Source: Ostreococcus lucimarinus (Eukaryota). Taken from it: a stretch of DNA of 64,000 nt. This document shows positions 410-48,280 of the stretch, one piece after another. The translations under genes were made by a program, and so were the position numbers. The first letter of the stretch is position 1; every line of letters begins with the position of its first letter. The stretch lies in assembly GCA_000092065.1 (NCBI GenBank), contig CP000587.1. The stretch is one strand, 5' to 3'. The notes under the pieces were generated by a model. That model saw only the letters and a program-made list of their open reading frames with translations. It made no database searches and was not told the DNA's origin.

Positions 410-460
410 ATGTCTTCGAGCAGACACATCGCGCTCACCGCAATCGGCGGCGCGCTCGCG
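410..460 (+). CDS. putative exon 1 (MSSSRHIALTAIGGALA) of small membrane-anchored coiled-coil protein
   Basis: ATG at 410 in the frame of ORF 272..529. A GTGCGC donor-like hexamer starts at 461 exactly on a codon boundary. Splicing to 555 keeps the frame of ORF 522..1019 and creates a continuous N-terminal hydrophobic helix. Confidence 0.35.
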
Positions 461-554
461 GTGCGCGTCGACGCGTCTCGATCGCGTCTCGATCGCGCGC
501 GACGCGTTTCTTTTCGGTCTCGTGACTGACGACAGCTCGTTTTTCGTACGACAG

Positions 555-1019
555 GCAGCGGGCGCGTTCTACGGCCCGAGCGCTCTGGAAGTGTACACCG
601 CGGAGTCATCTCTGGCGACGGCGGAGCGGAAACTCGCGGCGGTGAAGGCGTTGGCGCGAGACGACGAGCAGAACTTCGCCAAGGCGCGTTCGCGGTGGAG
701 CGCGGTGACGTCGGCGTTTAAGGACGCGTCGGAACGCTATCGGAGAACGAAAGAAAGTCTAGACACTCGCTTGCGGGCGTTAGAACAGGCGAAACGCGCG
801 TACGAGGATACAAAGAGAGAGGTAGACGAGGCTGCGTGTGCGCTCGCAGAGGCGGAGAAGGATGAAGCGGAGGCGAATTTGACGCTCGCGAGGGCTCGGC
901 AAAAGCTCGGTACGCACGAGGAAGCAATCGCGCAGGCAAAGGTAGAGGTCCAGAAGCTGACGACGGTCGCTGAGGCTGCCATCAAAAAAATGAACGCGCT
1001 CAAGTTGCCGACGTTTTGA
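555..1019 (+). CDS. exon 2 of coiled-coil protein (hypothetical); ORF 522..1019 has no ATG near its 5' end
   Basis: 165-aa ORF rich in A/E/K/R heptad-like sequence. Its first codon in the track is GTG. A pyrimidine-rich tract plus CGACAG acceptor ends at 554. Confidence 0.5.
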   Translation, partial: AAGAFYGPSALEVYTAESSLATAERKLAAVKALARDDEQNFAKARSRWSAVTSAFKDASERYRRTKESLDTRLRALEQAKRAYEDTKREVDEAACALAEAEKDEAEANLTLARARQKLGTHEEAIAQAKVEVQKLTTVAEAAIKKMNALKLPTF

Positions 1020-13878: not shown

Positions 13879-14289
13879 GGTCGACGGCGTCCCGGTCGTG
13901 AGGTTTGAATTTGAATTCGTGATTTGAAATCAATACGACTCGTGCGTCGAGTCGACTGCGCGCGATCGACTGCGCGCGGATCAATGATCCTCGACGCGAG
14001 TGTCTCACGGATTGCGCGTGTCACACGCGCGAGCGAGGTCGCGAACGACGCGCACTGCGGACGAATGCCGAAAATAGAAAATCCGGCCCTTTTTGTTTGG
14101 GACGCCGCGTCCCGGACGCGAGGGAGTACAGTGCTTGTTCAAATTTATTGCAACATCGTGCGTATCATCAACTTCAAAACGGCGCGCAATGGCGCGCATA
14201 CCAAAAATAAACCGACGAGCGGGTGTCGGCGGCGAAGATGAAGTGTAAGAATCGCGCTGCGGCGCAAGTGCGTGCGGGGCGGTCACCAG

Positions 14290-16758
14290 TTAGACGGTCG
14301 TCGCCTCGGTTGGTACGGGTGGGTTCCATTTGGCCTCGTACGTGCCGATCGGGAGAACGCCGACTTGCTCAGCGATAGCGTCGTCAAACTTCTCGGTGTT
14401 GCTACCGCTGTGCATGTGCGTGACGACGCCGTCCTTGAACACAAAGAACGTCGGCGTCGACTTGACGGCCAAGCGGTCACGCGCAAGGTGGATGGTACTC
14501 GCATTCTCGTTCCCGTAAATGCGCACGTATCGACACTTCTCGCGGTTGTCGCGCGCGCTTTGTTCAAAGTACGGCAAAAACTTCTTGCACGGCATGCAAG
14601 AGGTAAAGCCGACTTGCAGGACGACGGCGCGTCCCGTGCCCATCTCCTCTTCGAGGACTTGATCGACAGCGGCTTCGGTGTGCAACACTTGCGCCACCTC
14701 GGTCCCGATCACCGACTTATACCAGGTTTCGAATTGATCGAACGTTACTGACGACTCGCACTGCACGTCTATGTCGCAGACGAGCTCACGAACTTCGTCT
14801 TCGGGCAGGCGCACGCCCATGGCGGCGACCATGCGCACGAAGGCGTCCAAATCAATGGCGTCATCGTTAATGTCACCACCAAACTTCTCGAAAAGCTCGC
14901 GAAGTTGGATAGCAGACACGAGTTGCGGCGATCGGCCGACTTCTTTGCCGATCGCAGAACGCACGCGACGAATATCAGCCATGTACCTGAATCGGAAAGA
15001 GCCACCCGCGGCGGCGCCTCGCACGCCTTCGAGAGAGTTGGACCCGCCTATGATGAGCGGAGCAGCCGCCTTACCAGCTTGCACGACGCTCAGCTTTGGC
15101 ACCAGATGCGACCACTTGTCGAAGTTTCTCGCCGCGCTACCGCTGACGACCCATCGTTCCAAGCCACCGCGAGCGCAACGGCAGTTCTCGACCTTGGCCA
15201 AGTGCACCGCCATTCTCGTCGCCCATGCTTTCCACTCTTCTTCATCCTCGCAGTCATCAGCCGGAGGCTTAGCGTTCGCCCACTCTGGTTCGATCCATGA
15301 AATGGCGAGATCGGCTTCTCTGAAATCAGCATTCGTGCGAAGAACACCGTCTCTGAAGAGCGCGACGTGTACAGCTTCGTGGCCGGCGGTGACGACACCG
15401 GTCAAACCGCTCATCGCGTTGTCGGGATCGTCACTATCGAGGGTTTGACCAATCTTGACTCGTCTAGCGGCGTCGCCCCACAAGTCTTGGTGACCGTAAC
15501 CGTGCGCCTCGGCACCCGTGACGACGGTGACGTCCAAACCGACGGCGTTGCGCAACAGCTCCTCGGTTTCTTCGCGTTCGCGGCGTCCCTCGAAAGGGTT
15601 CAAAGTTTCCATCGCGGCGTACACGCTCGTGCCGCCCAACTTCTCGTCAGCGTGCCAAACACCCGGCAACGCGACAGAGACGGAACCTTGCCACTTCAGC
15701 TCCTTGGTGAGCGAGCGCAAAGCCGAGCCGACGGCGTTGATATCCAGCAGGGCGCCCTCGTCCAACGGAGCGGTGATGAGCTCAGACTCGAGTTCACCCG
15801 TGCGCACGTTCACGATCGCAGCGCTGACGATGCCTCCACTCGCGTACGCGCCAAGAATCGCTCTCGGGCCTTCGGCATATACCGATTCAAACGAGGTTTC
15901 CTCCTCCGCCCCGCGCGCGTCCTCGTCCACCTCCATGTCGGCGATACCCCGGCATTCATCCCCCTCCGCGCACGACGCCTTCTCTCCTCGCATCTCCATA
16001 CCGACTCGTCCGAGCGCCATCACCCCAGCCCCCATCGCGCCTCCAATCTTCAATCGATTGCTCGAGATCAACTTATACAGCACGCTCGCCGCGAGGCTGA
16101 TGGCCGGCATCGTCGCCAGCTTCACCGCCCAGCCCATGCCAACCTCCGCGAACAGCGCCTCGATCGCCGGCAATCCTCGCAGCGGTTCGCTTTTATCGCG
16201 TTTCAGCACGTGTATCGTCTCCATCGCCTCCGCGAACGTCACGCCTTGATGTTTCTTCGCGTCGTACGCCGGATCGCTGATGTCCACGTACCACACCTTG
16301 CCCTCGCCCCTCCCCGTCCCCTCGAGCGCGCTCTTCAGCGTCTGGCACACCGGGCACGCGCCGTCGTACAGGTACGCGTACTTCCAGTTCGCCGGTTCTT
16401 CGTCCGCGACCTCGGCGTCGTCGCTCGTCGCGCGCGTCGCGAACGACGCGCGACGTCGGCGCGCGACCGGCGCGACGTCGGCGCGGCGGCTCGACGGCGC
16501 CGCGCGCGCGCCGCGCGTCGAGGCGGACGTCGCGGCGCCGCACAAAGATCGAGGCGCGCACGTTTGCGCGCGCGCGCGCGCGAGCGGCGCGGCGCGCGGC
16601 ATGGCGAGCGGCGCGGTCTGCGGATACCCTCCGGCGGGCGTTAAACCGGGTTTAACGCCGGCGCGCGGAGAGACGCGGAGAGACGCGGAGAGAGGGAGAC
16701 GACGCGGAAGACGACGGCGAACGAAACATGGCGCGTCGAAAGACGCGAAAAACGTCAA
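14290..16758 (-). CDS. multidomain redox protein: DCC-type thiol-disulfide oxidoreductase + ASKHA sugar-kinase-like + EF-hand-like + thioredoxin-fold (CxxC)
   Basis: Motifs read in order N to C: YDGACPVCQ, a GAYASGGI-type kinase fold, VSGSAARNFDKW, and a C-terminal FTSCMPCKKF thioredoxin-like segment. The start may instead be MPRAAPLA at 16602. Confidence 0.55.
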   Translation of the reverse strand: MTFFASFDAPCFVRRRLPRRLPLSASLRVSPRAGVKPGLTPAGGYPQTAPLAMPRAAPLARARAQTCAPRSLCGAATSASTRGARAAPSSRRADVAPVARRRRASFATRATSDDAEVADEEPANWKYAYLYDGACPVCQTLKSALEGTGRGEGKVWYVDISDPAYDAKKHQGVTFAEAMETIHVLKRDKSEPLRGLPAIEALFAEVGMGWAVKLATMPAISLAASVLYKLISSNRLKIGGAMGAGVMALGRVGMEMRGEKASCAEGDECRGIADMEVDEDARGAEEETSFESVYAEGPRAILGAYASGGIVSAAIVNVRTGELESELITAPLDEGALLDINAVGSALRSLTKELKWQGSVSVALPGVWHADEKLGGTSVYAAMETLNPFEGRREREETEELLRNAVGLDVTVVTGAEAHGYGHQDLWGDAARRVKIGQTLDSDDPDNAMSGLTGVVTAGHEAVHVALFRDGVLRTNADFREADLAISWIEPEWANAKPPADDCEDEEEWKAWATRMAVHLAKVENCRCARGGLERWVVSGSAARNFDKWSHLVPKLSVVQAGKAAAPLIIGGSNSLEGVRGAAAGGSFRFRYMADIRRVRSAIGKEVGRSPQLVSAIQLRELFEKFGGDINDDAIDLDAFVRMVAAMGVRLPEDEVRELVCDIDVQCESSVTFDQFETWYKSVIGTEVAQVLHTEAAVDQVLEEEMGTGRAVVLQVGFTSCMPCKKFLPYFEQSARDNREKCRYVRIYGNENASTIHLARDRLAVKSTPTFFVFKDGVVTHMHSGSNTEKFDDAIAEQVGVLPIGTYEAKWNPPVPTEATTV
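16638..16658. repeat. 21-bp perfect palindrome gcgttaaacc-g-ggtttaacgc
   Basis: Inverted repeat with 10-bp arms and a 1-nt spacer in the 5' end/leader of the multidomain redox gene. Confidence 0.85.
16665..16700. repeat. 3 tandem copies of 10-bp unit cggagagacg
   Basis: Read directly, immediately adjacent to the palindrome. Confidence 0.8.
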
Positions 16759-17730: not shown

Positions 17731-19425
17731 ATGGCGCGACGTCGGACGCGCGACGGCGCGGCGCGCGTCGCGGTGGCGTGCGTCGCGCTCGTCGTCGCGC
17801 GATCGGTGCGCGCGACGACGACGGCGTCGTGCGCGGCGATGCTCGACGACGACGACGACGCGCCGCGGACGACGTACTCGAGCGCGCGGCGCGCGGAATC
17901 GCGCGAGGTGCGGTACGGGACGTCGTGGAACGCGAGCGGGGAGACGCGGGCGCGGGAGGACGGGGTGACGCTGCGACTGACGGCGCCGCCGTGGTGCGGG
18001 AGCACGCGAGCGCTGGCGCTGGCGCTGGAGCGCGAACTGGCGAGCGAACCGAGCGGAGGGGCGAGAGTGCTGTGGGAACGACCGTGGAGGCCGGAGCGGG
18101 AGGCGACGGGGGGGGCGATCGGGTCGTGGAGCGCGCCGCGGGCGGAGTTTGAGCTGGCGGACGCGAGCGGGACGCGCGTGCGATACGGCGGCGAGTGGAG
18201 CGCGGCGGGTCTGGCGCGCGCGGCGAGGACGCTGAACAGGGAGACGATGGGAAAGAACGAGAGCGTCATGACGCTTTGGCCGTTCGTGCGACTGCGAGAT
18301 AAGTACGCGGTGGCTGATTTTTTTGACAACGGCGCGGCGGAGCTGGCGGTGGTGGTGTTGGATCCGTGCAAGTCGGCGGACGGGTGCGCGTCGACGGCGT
18401 CGATGCGGCGACTTCGCGCGGCGATATTGGAGCGCATCGGGTACACGCCTAAGAATAGACTCGGCGTGTTGATGGGCGCGGACGCCTGGCGCATCGGTAC
18501 GAAGCTGCTGGACGAGTTTGACCCGGACGACATCACCGCTGTCGCCTTCGTTCGAGGCGCGTTGCACTCGGTATGGATGGGGAATAGGAAGAACGAGACT
18601 TCGGTCGAGCGATGGATCGATGAAATCAATAACGCGACGGTATCCACCGTCGTGCGACGCGGATTCTTCAGCCTGAGTGAGTTCAGCCCGGCGGTCGGCG
18701 CGCGGAAGTTGGCGATGATTTTTGCCAACGAAGCGAACGAAGATTTAGACGCTTTAGGCGTACACATTCATCACCTCGTGGATTCGAGTAGTTTAAACGC
18801 CACCGTGGGCGTGGTCGACACCAGCCGTGGGACGTGGTTGCTGTGTCAAATCACCGATAGTTGCGACGATTCCGGGGACGACGAGACGTCGCGGATTCAA
18901 GTCGCGCTGATCGACGTCGAAGAGGACTCTATTCAAACGGTAAACGTGTCCCCGCTTCCCGATGGCGCGCTGTCGGAGACGCGACCATTCACGCGGTCGG
19001 CGCGAAGCGTTCCCAAAACGCCCGCGGGCATGACTCCGCCTCGCGTGCCGCACATCGCGCGCAACCAACTCGATCACAAAGCTGCGCAAACGATGGCGCT
19101 TCGACGACAAGGGAAGTTTTCCGTGCTCTTCTCCTCGTCCGCGTGTGCGTTCTGTCAACGCTTTCTTTCGCTGCTCAACGCGGCGCTGGGCGATCTGGAC
19201 TACCGCGCGCTCGTCGACGGCACACAAACCGCTCGAGCGTTCCAAATCGACTGCGCCGTCAACGACTGCCACGACAGCTGGGACGCCGAAGCGCAATCAC
19301 TCGTCGGACGCGTCCTGCGCTACCCAACCTTGGTCACCTACGACGGCGCAACCGGCCGCATCGCGCGATACACCGGCGCCATGAACGCCAGAGACATCGC
19401 AGAATTCTTAGCCAATGATTTGTAA
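17731..19425 (+). CDS. secreted PDI-like protein with C-terminal thioredoxin domain (CAFC active site)
   Basis: Signal peptide (MARRRTRDGAARVAVACVALVVA). C-terminal Trx-like region (SSSACAFCQRF...RYPTLVTYDG). Confidence 0.5.
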   Translation: MARRRTRDGAARVAVACVALVVARSVRATTTASCAAMLDDDDDAPRTTYSSARRAESREVRYGTSWNASGETRAREDGVTLRLTAPPWCGSTRALALALERELASEPSGGARVLWERPWRPEREATGGAIGSWSAPRAEFELADASGTRVRYGGEWSAAGLARAARTLNRETMGKNESVMTLWPFVRLRDKYAVADFFDNGAAELAVVVLDPCKSADGCASTASMRRLRAAILERIGYTPKNRLGVLMGADAWRIGTKLLDEFDPDDITAVAFVRGALHSVWMGNRKNETSVERWIDEINNATVSTVVRRGFFSLSEFSPAVGARKLAMIFANEANEDLDALGVHIHHLVDSSSLNATVGVVDTSRGTWLLCQITDSCDDSGDDETSRIQVALIDVEEDSIQTVNVSPLPDGALSETRPFTRSARSVPKTPAGMTPPRVPHIARNQLDHKAAQTMALRRQGKFSVLFSSSACAFCQRFLSLLNAALGDLDYRALVDGTQTARAFQIDCAVNDCHDSWDAEAQSLVGRVLRYPTLVTYDGATGRIARYTGAMNARDIAEFLANDL

Positions 19426-40891: not shown

Positions 40892-41111
40892 CGCGCGTCG
40901 GCGCCGCGCGGGCGTGCGCGTCGACGGCGACGCGACGGGACGCCGACGACGCCGACGACGCGCGCGCGCGCGTCAACGAATGCGGACCCGCGACGTGCTG
41001 TCGCCGTTCGGTCGAACAATCCGCAGAGCGCGACGACGCGTCCGCGCGACGCGAGACGAGTCGCGCGCGAAGAGACGCGCGCGAACGATCGCGCGCGAAG
41101 AGACGCGCTCG

Positions 41112-43562
41112 ATGACGTCGGCGATGCGGGACGCGAAGGCGTCGCTGCGTGACTTTTCGAGCGACGATTTCGATCGCGTGCGGTGGATTAACGAGCAAAC
41201 GCGCGCGCGAATCGGCGACGCGGGAGGGAGCGGGCGCGACGCGACGGCGCGGGATGGATCGGCGGTGGTGGCGCGCGCGGTCGGAGAGGGGACGCGAGGG
41301 ACGAGCGCGTCGCCGTTGGAACGATTTTTGGCGGATTTGGAACTGCAGCTGCAGTTGCTCGGCGAAGATCTGTCGATGTCGCTGGAAGAGCGCTCGCGCG
41401 AGGGTGTCGCGCGCGTGCCCAAGGCGGTGAAGGAGATAGAAGTCGTCGAGGGGCGGGTGAAGCGTCTGCACGAGGAAGTGCGAGGGATATTGGATCGATT
41501 GGACGAGGTGGAGTCGGAGTCGCGCGCGAGCGTGGAAGCGCTGCGACAGCTCGACGCGGCGAAACAACGCATGGAGAGCGCGCGAGAGACGCTGCAGGAG
41601 GCGAATGGACTAGCAGATTTGATGGCGAGTGTGGACGGGATCTTTGCGAGCGGGAATATTCGTAACATGTCCGAGTCGTTGGCGCGGATGAAGCGCGGTT
41701 TAGCCGTCGTGGGCGACGTGCCAGAATTCGCCGACGGGCAAGACAAGGTGAACGCGTTCGAGCACAAGCTCGAGGCGATCGTCAGACCGGCCTTGATCAC
41801 GGCGTTGGAGTCACAAAACAGCACGGCGGCTCGCGAACATCGCGACGTGTTGCGCACTACCGGCCGCGGTTCGGCGTTGGAGAGCATTTATGCGGACACG
41901 CGCGTGACGTCTCGCATGCTCAAGCAGTGGAAGTCGCGCGAGCGCGATGCGACGACGACTGACGCTGGGAGGCTGGACGCTTCGGTGCATATGATCGATG
42001 AATTCTTGAAGTATTGCGCCACCGCTCTCAAAGAGGAGATATCTTGGTGCTCGAGTACGTTCCCCGAAGACGCCGTGCTTTTGATTCCGTTGTCTTGGTG
42101 TTCGCTTCACACCACGCTCGAAACGTCCATCACGGAGAAGCTCAGCTCGCTAACGCTCGAGCAACTCGTCTCGGCTCGAAATTCGTTCCAAACGTACGTC
42201 GAAGACGTTGGGATAGCGTTTACAAAACTCGCCGGCGACGCTGCAGCGCACGCGAACGCCGACGCCGTCAAGGGCGCCATCGGCGACGCGTTGATGGCGA
42301 TTGTCGAGCCTTTCATCGCGGTTGAGCAGCGTTTCGGCCAGCTCGCGCTTGCAGACATACGAACTACTTTAGATTCTTCGGTAAACATCCCTGAGGCACA
42401 GTCTATTGCGACGTCGGACGACTTGACCGCAGTTATACAAAGCGTGCTCGCCACGCTGCCGAAAGCCATCGACGTCTTCGGCGTCGTCATAGACAGATGC
42501 GAGGCGATTACCGCTGGCGTTGAGACGATGACTTGCATTCATGCGATTGAAAGTGGAATGGAACACTACGTCGATTTAGTCGCGCTCGTCCTTCGTGACT
42601 TGAGAAACGCGGCCGGTTTGATTGACTCGACCGCGACGAACATGAACTCAAACACGACTTCCGCGGGCGAAGAATTCATCAGAGGATCGCTCAGTATGCT
42701 GGACATGATCAACGCCATCCCGAACGCACTGTTAGATTTCGAGTCCGATCTACGTGCAAAGCTTCTGAAGCTTCGAGCGACGCTGCGACCGGCTTTGGAT
42801 GTTACTTTGGAGCTTGGTGACGGACCAAAAAGCCGTACGCTCCTCGGTTTGAGCATCGCGGCGCACGCGGCGCGATCACGAAAGTTGGCCACGTTCCTTG
42901 ACAAGGTGGCGGATGCCGCGGTGAAGCACTCGCTCGATGGATCCATAATTCCGGTCGGTGCTGAGCACATGAACGCTCTGACTAGATCACTCGAAAAATT
43001 CGTGTACGACACTCTCCTCGGGCGGGTGTCGCTCGAACTCAAGGGAATCAGCACGTCTGAGGTTTGGAGCGCCAAACCTGCCGAGAGCGCGTATAAACTC
43101 CCGACGTTTAGCGCTTATCCGCAAGAGCGAATGACGAATGCAGGTGAATATCTGCTTTCATTGCCGCAGCATCTGGATAACATGCACGACGACGACTTGG
43201 CTCGCGCGACGTCGCTTTCGGGCGACTCGAATGCGGCGCAAGAGCCGGCGACTTCCGAGGCGTGGATTGCGAAAATCGCCGAAGCGAGTGCTGAGTTGCT
43301 CTTGAAAGAAGTGCGTGCCATCGCGTCGCTCACCGACCAAGGCGCTGCGCAGTTGTCGGCGGATTTGGAGTATTTTTCGAACATAGTTGCAGCGCTCTCA
43401 CTCGCGCCACCCAGCGCGCTCATCGCCTGGTACAAGTGCGCGAGCGCGCCTCGCGACGAATACGAAGATTTTGCACGCGCTGCGACTTCAGAGGGCATCG
43501 ACGTGCGCGTCGTGCGAGCCGCCGCGGCGACGCGAGGGATTAAGTTAAGTAGTTCTTTGTAA
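41112..43562 (+). CDS. conserved oligomeric Golgi complex subunit 7 (COG7)-like
   Basis: Length and helical-bundle character. C-terminal region (GAAQLSADLEYFSNIVAALSL) resembles COG7. ATG at 41112. Confidence 0.5.
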   Translation: MTSAMRDAKASLRDFSSDDFDRVRWINEQTRARIGDAGGSGRDATARDGSAVVARAVGEGTRGTSASPLERFLADLELQLQLLGEDLSMSLEERSREGVARVPKAVKEIEVVEGRVKRLHEEVRGILDRLDEVESESRASVEALRQLDAAKQRMESARETLQEANGLADLMASVDGIFASGNIRNMSESLARMKRGLAVVGDVPEFADGQDKVNAFEHKLEAIVRPALITALESQNSTAAREHRDVLRTTGRGSALESIYADTRVTSRMLKQWKSRERDATTTDAGRLDASVHMIDEFLKYCATALKEEISWCSSTFPEDAVLLIPLSWCSLHTTLETSITEKLSSLTLEQLVSARNSFQTYVEDVGIAFTKLAGDAAAHANADAVKGAIGDALMAIVEPFIAVEQRFGQLALADIRTTLDSSVNIPEAQSIATSDDLTAVIQSVLATLPKAIDVFGVVIDRCEAITAGVETMTCIHAIESGMEHYVDLVALVLRDLRNAAGLIDSTATNMNSNTTSAGEEFIRGSLSMLDMINAIPNALLDFESDLRAKLLKLRATLRPALDVTLELGDGPKSRTLLGLSIAAHAARSRKLATFLDKVADAAVKHSLDGSIIPVGAEHMNALTRSLEKFVYDTLLGRVSLELKGISTSEVWSAKPAESAYKLPTFSAYPQERMTNAGEYLLSLPQHLDNMHDDDLARATSLSGDSNAAQEPATSEAWIAKIAEASAELLLKEVRAIASLTDQGAAQLSADLEYFSNIVAALSLAPPSALIAWYKCASAPRDEYEDFARAATSEGIDVRVVRAAAATRGIKLSSSL

Positions 43563-43673
43563 CGATTAGCGTTTCGCTTACAGAGCTTGATTTGTTACAA
43601 AGTTCCGAATTCTAGAAGAATGTTGTGGTATTGCGCCGCGAGAGTTCTTGTGTCAACTTCTGAGACTGAAGAA

Positions 43674-45136
43674 TCAGATGACAGTGCCAGCCTTGATCAC
43701 GGCATCCTTGATGACGACAATGATGCCATCGCGGATGATGTAACCTTCGCTTTCGCAATCCTTATCCATGACGCCAGCCTCATTGAGGATTTGGCAGTTT
43801 TCACCAATGCGCGCGTTCTTGTCGATGATGGCTTTGCGAATCTTCGTGCCGGCGCCAATACCGATCGGCGTGCAGCCCGGAAGGCTAGCCGGGTCGCATT
43901 CTTCGAGGCTCTCGTAGTAATCAGCACCCATGACGAGTGTGTCCTCCAAATCACACCCTTCGTTGACCGTCGATCTCAAACCAACCATGACGTTTTTGAG
44001 CTTGGCTTGCTTGATGGTGCAGCCGTCGCCGATCGTGGAGCGCTCGATTTCGCAATCTTGCACCTTGCTCGGCGGCAAGAAGCGAGACTGGGTGTAGATC
44101 GGCGCGTTGCGATCGTAGAAACTGAACTTCGGGTTCGGGTCGTTGCACTCCAAGTTGGCGTGGAAAAACGCATCGACGGTACCGATGTCCTCCCAGTATC
44201 CGTCGTACAAGTGAGCGACCACCTTCATGCCCTTCTGAGCCGCCATCGGGATGATTTCACCACCGAAATCGTTCGCTTCCGGGAAATCATCTTGAAGCAC
44301 CTGCTCCATAGCCTTGGCGTTGAACACGTAGATACCCATCGAGGCAATGTACGGCATTTCCTTGGCGCGTTCCGCGTCCAAGCCTAAGATGGTGGTGTCG
44401 CATTGCATCGCCTTGAGAGCGTCACCCTTGGGCTTTTCGGAGAACTCGATGATGGTGGCGTGTTCGTTAATCTTCATCAAGCCGAAAGAGCTGGCTCGCT
44501 TCTCATCCGTCGGCAAAGCGGCGACGGTGATGTCGGCGTTCTTCGCGCGGTGGTCGCGAATAAACGGACGGTAATCCATGCGGTACAAGTGATCGCCCGA
44601 AAGAATCAAGTATTCCTCGCACCCGCTCTCGGCAAACAACCACAAGTATTGACGAACAGCATCCGCGGTACCTTGGAACCACGCCTTGTTGATCGGGCTC
44701 TGTTGAGCCGCGAGCACTTCGACGAATCCCTGACGCGTGTACGTCCCGATGTTCGTGTTGTACGCCTGGGACAAGTGTCTGTTCAAAGATGCGCTGTTAA
44801 ACTGCGTCAAGCAGTACACCTTGTTGATGTCAGAGTTGATACAGTTCGACACCGGGATATCGATCAAGCGGTAGTTCGCCCCCAACGGCACCGCCGGCTT
44901 CGCCCGCTTCTTCGTCAACGGGTACAATCGCGTCCCCGCGCCGCCGCCGAGAATGATGGACAACACGTTATCCATCGACGCATCGTGTTCCTTCTTCCCC
45001 TCGCTCTTCTCGTGCATCGCCGGCGACGTCGCATGAATCATCACCGCCGCCCGCGTCTCGACGCGTCGAATCGCGCGCGCATTCTTCGCCGCGCCTCTCG
45101 TCTTAATCGCCGCCGTCCCGCGCGCGCTCGCCCGCG
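43674..45136 (-). CDS. glucose-1-phosphate adenylyltransferase (ADP-glucose pyrophosphorylase) small-subunit type, main exon
   Basis: [24 protein letters not shown] and a full NTP-transferase plus left-handed beta-helix C-terminus. The in-frame region upstream of the core is open to an acceptor CGCAG ending at 45137. Confidence 0.9.
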
Positions 45137-45314
45137 CTGCGTTCGTCCAATCGCGATCCCGTCAGTCTTCCATCCTCGTCCCGCCCGCTTCGCGTCCTCC
45201 CGCGCGCGCGTCGCGTCCGCGTCGTCCACCACCGCGCGTTCGCGCGCGCCTCCGACGCGCGCGCGCGTCGTCGCGCGGCCCGCTTCGCGTCATCGCGTCG
45301 CCGCGCGTCGTCGA

Positions 45315-45342
45315 CATCGAATCGAATCGAATCGATCGCGAT
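45315..45342. repeat. (ATCGA)5 pentanucleotide microsatellite inside the proposed AGPase intron
   Basis: atcgaatcgaatcgaatcgaatcgatcg read directly. Confidence 0.8.
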
Positions 45343-45430
45343 CGTTCGTCCCGTCGTCGCGCGTCGAGGCGCGTCGTCGCGCCGCGCCGCGGTCGGCGTC
45401 GATCGTTCGCGCGCTCGTTCGATCGCGCAC

Positions 45431-45551
45431 CCGTCATCGCGCGCGTCGTCGTCGTCGCGCGCATCGTCGTCGCCGTCGAAATGTGCGGCGTCGACGACGC
45501 GCGTCGACGCGCGATATCCGATCGCGCGCGCGCGCGCGCGTCGTGAGCCAC
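45431..45551 (-). CDS. putative AGPase exon 1 encoding start of plastid transit peptide (MAHDARARARSDIARRRASSTPHISTATTMRATTTTRAMT-G)
   Basis: ATG at 45549-45551. Donor GTGCGC after a phase-1 G. Splicing to 45136 restores the AGPase frame exactly. Inferred intron 45137..45430 (294 nt). Confidence 0.45.
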
Positions 45552-45766
45552 TCGTTTCTTGGAACTGGTGATGGGTCTCGGAATGCGTCAAGTACGGGAA
45601 TTCGAGCGTTCGATCTTGGATTTATGCAACGCGCGAAACGTCGCGGGCGACGCGAACCGACTTATTTTAGGCGCGCGGAGGCGCGCGGTTGACTCGCGGG
45701 CGGCGCGCGGCAGAGCGCGGCCGGTGGCGCGCGACGTCGACGGGAGGGATCGAGCGCGCGCGTGAG

Positions 45767-48280
45767 ATGGTCGGACGCGTCGCGGTGTTCGCGCGGGTGC
45801 GGCCGAGGGATGGACGCGGGCGCGAGGAGGACGACGGCGAGGGCGCGGAGGCGGGCGGGGAGGACGGCGACGGCGCGGGACGGCGAGGGGCGTGGATCGA
45901 GGACGGACGCGTGGTGAGCGTGAAATCGACGACGTCGGTGAACGGCGTCACGCGGAGGTTCGCGGTGGACGGGGCGTTCGACGGGAGGGCGACGCAGCGG
46001 GAGGTGTACGCGGAGACGTGCGCGCCGGTGCTCGAGGCGGTGCGGAGCGGGTGTCGAGGATGCGTGCTCGCGTACGGACAGACGGGGTCGGGGAAGACGT
46101 ATTCACTACTGAATGGGGGTGGCGATCGAGCCGAACGCGAGGCGTCGACGAGCGAAGGTGGCAACGGGGGGCCGGGACTCGTGCCGAGAATCGCGGTGGA
46201 TTGTTTCGCGCGAGCGGCGAGCGACGCGAGGCACGCGTACGAGGTGTCGTGCGCGATGGCGCAGATTTATAACGAACAGGTCGATGATTTGGTAGCGAAA
46301 AAATCGGGATTACGTGTCGTTCCCGCGAGCGATGGCTCGGGGTGGGAGATTGAGAACTTATCGTGGACGCCGTGTCGAAGCGCCGAGGACGTTCTCGAGT
46401 GTTTTCGTCGCGGGCGATCGCGATTGGTGTACGCCGAGACGCATATGAACAAGCAGAGCTCGAGATCCCACTGTGTGTTTCAGATGAAAATCGAACGCAT
46501 CGAGCGACCGATCGAGGCGGATGTCGATCGCGACGAGGATGAGGATGAAGACGGAACCGCGCAGCTCGTCGCCGTGGAGAAGCGTCTCGGACTGCTCACC
46601 ATCGTCGACTTGGCCGGAAGTGAGCGACAGAAGAAGACGCAGAACGTCGGCGCGCGATTCAAAGAGGCGTTGAACATCAACACCAGCCTGCTCGCTCTAG
46701 GGAACGTCGTAAGTGCGCTCGCGGCGGGGCACAGGCACATCCCGTATCGTGATTCCACGCTTACGAAAATCTTAGAGCCGAGCCTGAACGGCAAGAGTCG
46801 CACGGTTCTGCTCGTGTGCGTCAGCTCCGAGATCGAGCACGCGAACGAAAGCGCGAATTCGCTCGACTTTGCCACGCGTGCGATGCGAATCGTGACTTCA
46901 CCCGAGGTTCGTTCGTCCTTAGTGGACATGGACCCTCGCAAACTGACGCAACAATTGCGCGGTCAATGCGACGACGAAGCGGTGGCGCGTCTGATGGATG
47001 AAGTCACTTCGCTTCGTCGCGCGCTCGCAAACGCGACGAAAAGTTCGGAGGATGACATTAACGCGATGAAAAAGTCGCGCGATTCGCTTCAACACGAGAT
47101 TTGCAGCGCGAGATTGGCGTTGGAGTCTTCGAAGAGGGCGCTCGAGCAAGCGAAGAGCGAGTCGACGACAAAGACGCGCGAGTTGGATGCGATTGAAAAT
47201 CAGCGTAGCGCGCTCGATTCGCGCGTACGCACGCTCGTGGTAAAGTTGAGCACGTCTTCGAATGAGCTGCAGAACGAGAGAGCAAAGTTCAAAGAGGAAT
47301 CAGCGCGACTTGTGGCGGACGCGCGGAAATTGGACGCGCAATTGAGCGCCGAGCGCGCGTCAGCTTCGCACACGCTCAAGCGCATGGAACATCTCAATAA
47401 GCTCGCGAGCGAGCTGAAGGTATCCAACGATTCCAATATCGTTGAGAACGCCAAGCTTAAAGCCGAAAATGTGCGGCTTCGGTCGACTGTTGGATCGCAG
47501 CGGATGGACAACGCGAGATTGATGCGCAGACACGCGGCGCTCGAATCGAAGCACGCCCTCGTCGTCGCCGAACGCGCCGAGCTCGTGTGCGAGTGCGAGT
47601 CCCTATTCATCGAGAACAAATTCATGGTCGTAATACGTGACGCTCTGGCGGCGGCTTGCGACGCAAAAATATCCGAAATGACTCGACGATATGTCAAGTT
47701 GGATGCGATTCGCGCGAGACATTCCATGGCCCGACGAGCGGCCGCTCGTCGATCGACCGAGCGCACGGCGATATTGATGGCTTTAGAGCGATCGAACAAG
47801 GGCGTATTGAAGCACGTGCGCGACTTAGAGAACCACAGGAGCGCCAGTGACGAGAGATACGCTCGAGAACTCGCGGCAGCGCGCGCCGAAGGCGACGCGC
47901 ATCGTCAGCGCGCCAAAGCCGCCGCGCGACTCCACGCTCTCTCCGCCGACCGTCAGCTCGAGCGAGGTTTAGTCTTAACCAAGCTCGCGCGCAATGGCAA
48001 GCGTTACGATCGACTTGTCCGCGTCGATCCATTCACCGGTGCGCTTGAGGCCGCGCAGTTGCCTCGCCGGTTCAAGAAAATCGCGCCGCGGCGCGCCGCG
48101 AGCGACGGCGCCCCGACCGCCGTCGACCGATCGCCGTCCCTCGCTATGACGCGAGACGACCAGCGCGACGTGGTTTCAATTTCTTTACAGAATCGCACGT
48201 TTGATATCGAGGCCACGCACGGCGCCGACCTCGTGTGGGGTCTCGCCCTCGCTCGCCGGTTTGGCGTTCGCGACGGCTGA
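45767..48280 (+). CDS. kinesin motor protein with long coiled-coil stalk
   Basis: N-terminal motor (GQTGSGKTYSL, SSRSHCVFQ, VDLAGSER) followed by a coiled coil. ATG at 45767. Confidence 0.85.
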   Translation: MVGRVAVFARVRPRDGRGREEDDGEGAEAGGEDGDGAGRRGAWIEDGRVVSVKSTTSVNGVTRRFAVDGAFDGRATQREVYAETCAPVLEAVRSGCRGCVLAYGQTGSGKTYSLLNGGGDRAEREASTSEGGNGGPGLVPRIAVDCFARAASDARHAYEVSCAMAQIYNEQVDDLVAKKSGLRVVPASDGSGWEIENLSWTPCRSAEDVLECFRRGRSRLVYAETHMNKQSSRSHCVFQMKIERIERPIEADVDRDEDEDEDGTAQLVAVEKRLGLLTIVDLAGSERQKKTQNVGARFKEALNINTSLLALGNVVSALAAGHRHIPYRDSTLTKILEPSLNGKSRTVLLVCVSSEIEHANESANSLDFATRAMRIVTSPEVRSSLVDMDPRKLTQQLRGQCDDEAVARLMDEVTSLRRALANATKSSEDDINAMKKSRDSLQHEICSARLALESSKRALEQAKSESTTKTRELDAIENQRSALDSRVRTLVVKLSTSSNELQNERAKFKEESARLVADARKLDAQLSAERASASHTLKRMEHLNKLASELKVSNDSNIVENAKLKAENVRLRSTVGSQRMDNARLMRRHAALESKHALVVAERAELVCECESLFIENKFMVVIRDALAAACDAKISEMTRRYVKLDAIRARHSMARRAAARRSTERTAILMALERSNKGVLKHVRDLENHRSASDERYARELAAARAEGDAHRQRAKAAARLHALSADRQLERGLVLTKLARNGKRYDRLVRVDPFTGALEAAQLPRRFKKIAPRRAASDGAPTAVDRSPSLAMTRDDQRDVVSISLQNRTFDIEATHGADLVWGLALARRFGVRDG

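Follow-up and report, generated by a model that had tools for sequence, protein, structure and literature searches.

We analyzed a stretch of 64,000 nucleotides (nt) of Ostreococcus lucimarinus DNA (contig CP000587.1 of assembly GCA_000092065.1), referred to below as the window, and in it the 5' end of the gene for ADP-glucose pyrophosphorylase (AGPase). The listing of open reading frames (ORFs) gave a 456-codon ORF on the minus strand (43674-45044), which encodes a complete AGPase and has in-frame ATGs at 45041, 45017 and 44975. Its product matched the NCBIfam profile NF002772 with 641 bits (cut-off 537) over profile positions 1-429 of 429, and TIGR02091 with 439 bits (cut-off 425). Among the chains of 9xuk, the small subunit (9xuk_A) scored 641 bits and the large subunit (9xuk_B) 521 bits, and small subunits were the top named matches of the window AGPase. 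Judged from its sequence, this is the nuclear gene that encodes the small (catalytic) AGPase subunit of O. lucimarinus CCE9901. An exact-sequence look-up led to the public entry XP_001418959.1 / ABO97252.1, a 'predicted protein' of the same strain, which has 433 amino acids and begins with MDNVLSI... at ATG 44975.

Upstream of the annotated AGPase exon we observed what is very probably a missed first exon with a coding part of 34 nt, followed by a canonical 294-nt intron; the spliced gene would encode a plastid-directed precursor of 498 amino acids. On the minus strand, the ATG at 45464 opens the reading ATG CGC GCG ACG ACG ACG ACG CGC GCG ATG ACG G^GTGCGCG (a caret marks a splice site), that is, MRATTTTRAMT plus one base. 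A second ATG of exon 1 lies at 45437. The intron ends are GTGCGC (5') and ACGCAG (3'), i.e. GT and AG. When 45431 is joined to 45136, the junction codon is G+CG (Ala) and the frame continues without stops for 498 amino acids in total. The predicted junction of the spliced mRNA reads ...GCGATGACGG^CGCGGGCGAG..., or in a wider form GCGCGATGACGG joined to CGCGGGCGAGCG (45431^45136). The features of the locus and of its relatives are collected in Table 1.

Much of this layout had been proposed in a first-pass annotation of the window, and the base-by-base check reproduced its phase-1 donor G^GTGCGC after RAMT, with the intron beginning at 45430, its phase-1 entry into the AGPase frame after aacgcag^, with 45137 as the last intron base, the exact intron length of 294 nt, and the in-frame product, which runs into MIHATSP. 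The (ATCGA)5 repeat that it placed in the intron was found by Tandem Repeats Finder (TRF) at 45311-45335 in 4.8 copies, the plus-strand unit TCGAA being a rotation of ATCGA. It was also right that the core ORF has no in-frame ATG farther up, as none occurs between the in-frame stop and ATG 45041. Two of its distances had to be revised. It counted about 25 residues before the GGGAGTRL loop, but there are 31 from ATG 45041, 23 from 45017 and 9 from the annotated 44975. It also placed the upstream stop about 90 codons away, but this stop is the TGA at 45164-45162, which lies 72 codons before GGGAGTRL and 41 before ATG 45041.

Between this TGA and ATG 45041 the AGPase frame has 40 open codons, none of them ATG. 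The TGA is the sole in-frame stop of the intron and is located inside the branch-point motif. As 294 = 98 x 3, exon 1 and exon 2 share their genomic frame. On the minus strand no ATG occurs from 45900 to 45464, therefore ATG 45464 is the first AUG of AGPase transcripts starting in that region.

Table 1. Features of the AGPase locus in the window and of the homologous exon-intron structures in relatives (caret, splice site)
Feature	Position	Strand	Details
Exon 1, coding part	45431..45464	-	ATG + 10 codons + 1 base (34 nt), phase-1 end
5' splice site GTGCGCG	45424..45430	-	6/7 vs GTGCGTG; first intron base 45430
GT-AG intron, 294 nt, 73% G+C	45137..45430	-	base-by-base check
Pentanucleotide microsatellite (TCGAA)4.8 in intron	45311..45335	.	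Tandem Repeats Finder, period 5
Branch-point motif GACTGACG	45160..45167	-	branch A 45162, 25 nt before 3' site
3' splice site ACGCAG^, phase 1	45137..45142	-	upstream letters ...GGACGAACGCAG^; last intron base 45137
Exon 2, 5' part, rest of leader	45042..45136	-	without in-frame ATG
Exon 2, leader remainder + complete small-subunit core	43674..45136	-	stop at 43674-43676
Public start codon	44973..44975	-	exact-sequence match to XP_001418959.1 / ABO97252.1
Intergenic region toward divergent kinesin	45465..45766	.	kinesin first ATG 45767 on +
L015			exon 1 MATTMR, G^GTGCGTG; branch GACTGACG; acceptor GCGCAG^
L017			exon 1 MSSAVC, G^GTGCGTG; branch GACTGACG; acceptor ACGCAG^
L020			exon 1 MLGHTTTSTTLT, G^GTACGTG; branch GACTAACG; acceptor ACGCAG^
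L021			exon 1 MALSMSANFT, G^GTACGTG; branch GACTGACC; acceptor TTTACAG^
L025			exon 1 MALSMRANAQ, G^GTACGTC; branch CACTGACG; acceptor ACACCAG^
L027			contig starts inside intron; branch GACTGACG; phase-1 acceptor ACAG^CG

We compared the splice signals with those reported for the species. Introns of O. lucimarinus outside chromosome 2 that are confirmed by expressed sequence tags (ESTs) have an atypical 5' consensus, GTGCGTG (Irimia & Roy 2008, PMC2483917). Among the non-chromosome-2 introns, ACTGAC is present in 87% and the extended form GACTGACG in 66.5% (PMC2483917). Reported intron sizes have a mean of 188 bp and a maximum of 1773 bp (PMC2483917; PMC2367439, Lanier et al. 2008). The AGPase intron resembles the EST-confirmed introns in its GT-AG ends, its GTGCG-type donor and the presence of GACTGACG near the 3' end. 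Its size falls inside the reported range, and the gene lies on an intron-poor background of the non-chromosome-2 type. The intron differs from them at donor position +6, which is C where the species consensus has T, and in being absent from the public annotation of the gene. The donor GTGCGCG thus agrees with GTGCGTG in 6 of 7 positions, while the branch motif is an exact GACTGACG; this copy, at 45167-45160, is the only ACTRAC in the intron. The G+C content is 73% in the intron and 61% in the window.

Further, we listed all ATG/GT/AG combinations upstream of the core whose product is in frame and free of stops (n = 36). Among these 36 combinations, one intron has both a donor of at least 6/7 and an ACTRAC in range, and this was true with either exon-1 ATG. 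It is the intron named in the first-pass annotation, so that the search for another upstream ATG exon returned no second candidate with good signals. In the window, an ACTRAC 10-55 nt before the 3' site had a shuffle p = 0.006.

The locus has a conserved neighborhood, in which a COG7-like gene (+, PF10191), AGPase (-) and a kinesin gene (+, PF00225) follow each other at 40914-48280; this order is kept in all Ostreococcus-like contigs examined. Orthologues with 77-85% protein identity were found in the same kinesin-AGPase-COG7 arrangement. Five other lineages (L015, L017, L020, L021 and L025) have a short ATG exon, a phase-1 G^GT(G/A)CGT donor and a phase-1 YAG^ acceptor, so the comparison of AGPase gene structures that had been suggested for Ostreococcus returned the same phase-1 layout of short exon and intron each time. 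The phase-1 acceptors among the relatives were (A/G)CGCAG^, ACACCAG^, TTTACAG^ and GAACAG^. ACTRAC is present exactly once in each of five introns (window, L015, L017, L020 and L021), 22-40 nt before the 3' site, and this placement had shuffle p values of 0.002-0.009 per lineage. In L025 there is one ACTGAC, farther upstream of the acceptor. The relatives' introns are approximately 300-500 nt long, with lengths of 315, 367, 430 and 440 nt, not all of which are multiples of three. Alignment of the upstream regions between lineages gave low-complexity matches only, and the intron interiors were not alignable; the evidence of conservation therefore comes from motifs, order and phase. Exon 2 lacks an in-frame ATG ahead of MDNVLSI or MIHATSP in the window, L015 and L017, so in these three the start has to lie upstream.

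The intron happens to be open in frame in one lineage that is related to L014. Prokaryote-style callers there give 'AGPases' of 537 and 558 amino acids (P0141 and P0148, from the P0005 cluster), whose N-terminal extension, MTGARRVGDDRAMMTTTGTTMMRDRS..., is spurious; its stretch MMTTTGTTMMR appears to be the exon-1 equivalent.

Variation within the population was analyzed in metagenomic contigs. The exact 455-amino-acid product of the AGPase ORF is present on hundreds of them, and the upstream regions of twelve were aligned with the window. Ten variants are full-length (L002-L011), and L001 is cut off upstream. Exon 1, donor, branch point and acceptor were identical in the ten full-length variants. 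Their introns contain 11 substitutions and indels of +1, +2 and +4 nt, with resulting lengths of 294, 295, 296 and 298 nt, and the sole indel in the exon-2 leader is one of 3 nt (AAI vs AL or AC; L001 reads AA). Frame-breaking change is therefore tolerated only in the proposed intron. With an intron of 295, 296 or 298 nt, the genomic frames of the two exons differ, yet the exons are in frame once spliced. We also observed a hypervariable spot in the leader (45103-45108, minus strand), where GCG ATT (A-I) of the reference is replaced in metagenomic variants by CTG (L), TGC (C) or ATG (M), or is shortened to A by a plain 3-nt deletion, always in frame.

L012, a natural O. lucimarinus-like allele, has lost a part of this region. 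A 178-nt deletion (window 45543-45366) between two CGACGCGCG direct repeats takes exon 1 and, with the donor, the intron's first 64 nt, and leaves the branch point and the acceptor intact. L012 has a new in-frame ATG in exon 2 (window ~45107; L012:2740-3010), which opens a 22-residue leader, MKTRG.... The contig L013, from another sample, shares this ATG and ends there. As read from the assembled allele, the loss of exon 1 and the gain of an ATG go together, as they should if the start codon normally comes from exon 1.

The leader of the predicted precursor was analyzed for its composition. The first 43 residues of the spliced model include 13 Ala, 9 Arg, 9 Ser+Thr and 1 Asp/Glu, with a net charge of +10, while residues 1-22 counted from the alternative start ATG 45041 have a net charge of -1 and no Arg. 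The plant structures 9xuk_A and 1yp2_A match from residue 61 of the spliced model (E ~1e-190), and both the solved structures and the bacterial-type family profile show homology from residues 61-66 onward; the leader is therefore an N-terminal addition. The spliced leaders of the lineages align weakly but recognisably, with a common KTRG and an R-x-A-V-A-V end. The end of the window leader, ...TRAAV^M, bears a resemblance, and a resemblance only, to the ...AVAV^D/S ends of the relatives' leaders (the caret here marks the end of the leader). We conclude that the leader of about 43 residues is a predicted chloroplast transit peptide, which would direct import into the plastid. The first-pass annotation had assigned the transit peptide to a separate upstream exon. 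An upstream ATG exon is indeed supported, but it encodes leader residues 1-11 only, that is, 11 of about 43, and about 32 more are encoded in exon 2. In papers on O. tauri AGPase the leader was trimmed and gene structure was not discussed.

According to the mechanism that we propose, the AGPase mRNA would start in the region of approximately 300 bp that it has in common with the divergent kinesin gene, and the first AUG, at 45464, would open an 11-codon exon. The canonical U2-type intron 45430-45137 (GTGCGCG...GACTGACG...ACGCAG) would then be removed and exon 1 joined to the long exon 2 in phase 1 via the Ala codon. In the resulting precursor of 498 amino acids the first ~43 residues would act as a chloroplast transit peptide, and the catalytic core would begin at about residue 61-66. 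If the intron were kept, translation from the first AUG would stop after 100 residues at the TGA of the branch motif, and the enzyme could then be made only in a leaderless form. Splicing of the 294-nt intron is something that we infer, because no spliced transcript or protein was retrieved, and the same applies to which of the two exon-1 ATGs, 45464 or 45437, serves as the start.

Several observations weigh against the spliced first exon. The donor pattern GGTGCGYG is common in the window (21 observed vs 15.8 expected), and loose donor-plus-branch composites are not enriched in it (20 observed vs 17.5 expected). The shuffle test of the donor side (short ATG exon, G^GTRCGYG, right phase) was weak, with p ~0.14 for the window; the product of the donor-side p values over five lineages was ~0.002, for lineages that are related and hence non-independent. 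The C at donor position +6 counts on the same side. The motif GACTGACG itself was observed 8 times in the window vs 4.2 expected, and on its own neither this motif nor that of the donor is rare in such GC-rich sequence. Whether the signals exceed chance has a mixed answer, with a donor side that does not convince by itself and a strong branch/acceptor side.

To these points the search for products has to be added. In exact look-ups, the predicted spliced precursors of five lineages were absent from a collection of 15 billion proteins; look-ups were made for the window type and the more common 'TAL' variant, for GTG-extended forms, and for four relatives. In the metagenome contigs of the Joint Genome Institute (JGI), a pattern spanning the junction, with a slack of 0-30 nt, gave 0 matches. 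A profile of six spliced N-termini retrieved one uninformative genomic fragment, and a single 86-residue N-terminal query had no match, both in searches with poor sensitivity for short, low-complexity queries. The collections consist mostly of DNA assemblies with prokaryote-style gene calls, as is evident from the ORFs in them that start with GTG or TTG or read through, and therefore these negatives weigh little. Longer members of the protein cluster (477, 493, 537 and 558 amino acids) were considered as spliced forms and rejected, as all of them are unspliced genomic ORFs from prokaryote-style calls.

The main contrary evidence is P0010 (MMETSP0930, Ostreococcus sp. RCC789), the sole transcript-derived relative found. 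The spliced transcript evidence called for in the first-pass annotation was looked for and none was retrieved, while the one transcript-derived protein of a relative starts inside the homologous intron. The first residues of P0010, MCIVVCVCFT, are the translation of that intron's last 30 nt, its polypyrimidine end (L021:2990-3031). Since the protein starts in the intron, the transcript kept at least the intron's 3' end and was either unspliced there or started internally. P0010 may reflect intron retention, an internal start site or assembly of pre-mRNA. In L020 we noted an in-frame ATG (MCDYFLTRDA) just before the acceptor.

Three other explanations of the region were weighed against splicing at 45430 and 45137. 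It is unlikely that a real intron ends at 45137 and has another 5' end or start, be it a donor at 45256, 45232 or 45229 with ATG 45317 or 45293, a start at ATG 45437, or a non-coding exon 1. Such in-frame alternatives exist on paper, the branch/acceptor side is much better supported than the donor side, and several consensus-like donors compete in L021 and L015. In the window, however, the alternative donors of the in-frame models all score at most 4/7 against GTGCGTG. A coding stretch 45430-45256 conflicts with the +1, +2 and +4 nt indels located there, and variants L001 and L012 have lost ATG 45317. With a non-coding exon 1, exon 2 would be left without an AUG before the leader, whereas a start at ATG 45437 would use the same intron and make the leader 9 residues shorter.

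We regard as very unlikely the explanation that there is no splicing, that the mRNA starts inside or downstream of the intron and is translated from ATG 45041 or 44975 without a transit peptide, and that the open upstream frame is a by-product of high G+C content. This is the public gene model; chance long open frames do occur in GC-rich DNA, no spliced product was found in any collection searched, and the RCC789 protein begins inside the homologous intron. On the other hand, the N-terminus from ATG 45041 is acidic and, lacking Arg, unlike a targeting signal. The upstream extension is open, has only a 3-nt indel and resembles the relatives' leaders, and no counterpart of ATG 45041 exists in L015 or L017. 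The single ACTRAC 22-40 nt before a YAG at the start of the extension, found across lineages, would be unexplained without splicing. Further, the starch granule of Ostreococcus is made inside the plastid, hence AGPase has to be imported. Even less credible, and in our estimate extremely unlikely, is a non-AUG start (e.g. ACG, ATT or AAG) between 45161 and 45042 on an unspliced or internally initiated mRNA, which would give a shorter leader without exon 1. The 40 codons open upstream of ATG 45041 are leader-like, prokaryote-style callers choose GTG/TTG starts in this stretch in relatives, and L012 suggests that a 22-residue leader (MKTRG...) may be viable. Such a start would leave the conserved splice signals and the short ATG exon unexplained, and if transcription starts intergenically it would demand scanning past five AUGs (45464, 45437, 45317, 45293 and 45173). 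No near-cognate codon in a strong context was identified.

Splicing of the short first exon to exon 2 could also be subject to regulation. We consider it quite unlikely that intron retention or an internal transcription start switches between long-leader, short-leader and leaderless AGPase in Ostreococcus. This reading may draw on the intron being in frame with both exons, on its sole stop being located in the branch point, and on the in-frame ATG that some relatives have in the last 30 nt of the intron together with P0010. If it held, the switch would be similar to that of the cereal small-subunit gene with its alternative first exons, and L012 may be a snapshot of turnover between leader modes.

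The intergenic region between exon 1 and the kinesin gene (Table 1) presumably holds a bidirectional promoter and the AGPase 5' untranslated region. TRF detected a (CG)9 run at 45523-45540, just upstream of exon 1. At 45661-45668 in the same intergenic region we observed an AAAATA duplication polymorphism adjoining TAAAATAAG and CATAAAT motifs.

Elsewhere in the window, a second likely short first exon was noted at 410-1019 (+). There ATG 410 is followed by 17 codons (MSSSRHIALTAIGGALA) and a 94-nt intron at 461-554 (+) with GTGCGCG, GACTGACG and ACAG^, after which exon 2 gives a 171-amino-acid coiled-coil-like protein. Near its start, the exon-2 frame of this case lacks an ATG. Composites of donor, ACTGAC and AG at 17806-18002 (+) and 14268-14779 (+) are possible introns, one of them after the ATG-started stretch MARRRTRDGAARVAVACVALVVARS.

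The public model XP_001418959.1 and the spliced model have in common the locus and the 433 C-terminal residues, which are identical. The public model is a single exon and does not include the 65 N-terminal residues of the spliced model; it is therefore without any targeting leader. With plant AGPase small subunits of solved structure (1YP2 of potato; 9XUK chain A) the match comprises 438 aligned residues (E ~1e-190), a loop segment of 23 residues among them, and like these the Ostreococcus precursor is nuclear-encoded and predicted to be plastid-directed. Its leader is unrelated in sequence to the leaders of plant small subunits, as is usual for transit peptides.

In barley and wheat, alternative first exons of a small-subunit gene give rise to a plastidial and a cytosolic form. 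The two situations are alike in that targeting would be set by a first exon joined to a common body. Unlike in cereals, there is no evidence here of two first exons or of a cytosolic form, and exon 1 carries just 11 residues of the leader. Micromonas introner elements are families of repeated introns. The AGPase intron is like them in being GC-rich, a few hundred bases long and located in a gene of Mamiellophyceae. It is unlike them in not being repeated in the 64-kb window: the introner/repeat idea was rejected, as blastn of the intron against the window gave low-complexity matches only, the best other match having 73% identity over 187 nt (at most 74% for matches over 100 nt).

In O. tauri, re-annotation raised the share of validated introns from 7% to 89% (PMC4378021), early intron models of Ostreococcus having been mostly wrong. 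The AGPase case therefore amounts to an ordinary correction of a gene model and is not new biology; beyond annotation quality nothing in it challenges current understanding. If the spliced model is true, the public record of a central enzyme of starch synthesis in a model picoalga is truncated, and its targeting leader is missing. The enzyme would then be misplaced in predictions of localisation, in inventories of the plastid proteome and in comparative studies based on XP_001418959.1; pathway inventories, too, would gain from the correction. The case would also point to a systematic weakness, namely that gene finders miss very short first exons in the intron-poor, GC-rich genomes of Mamiellophyceae.

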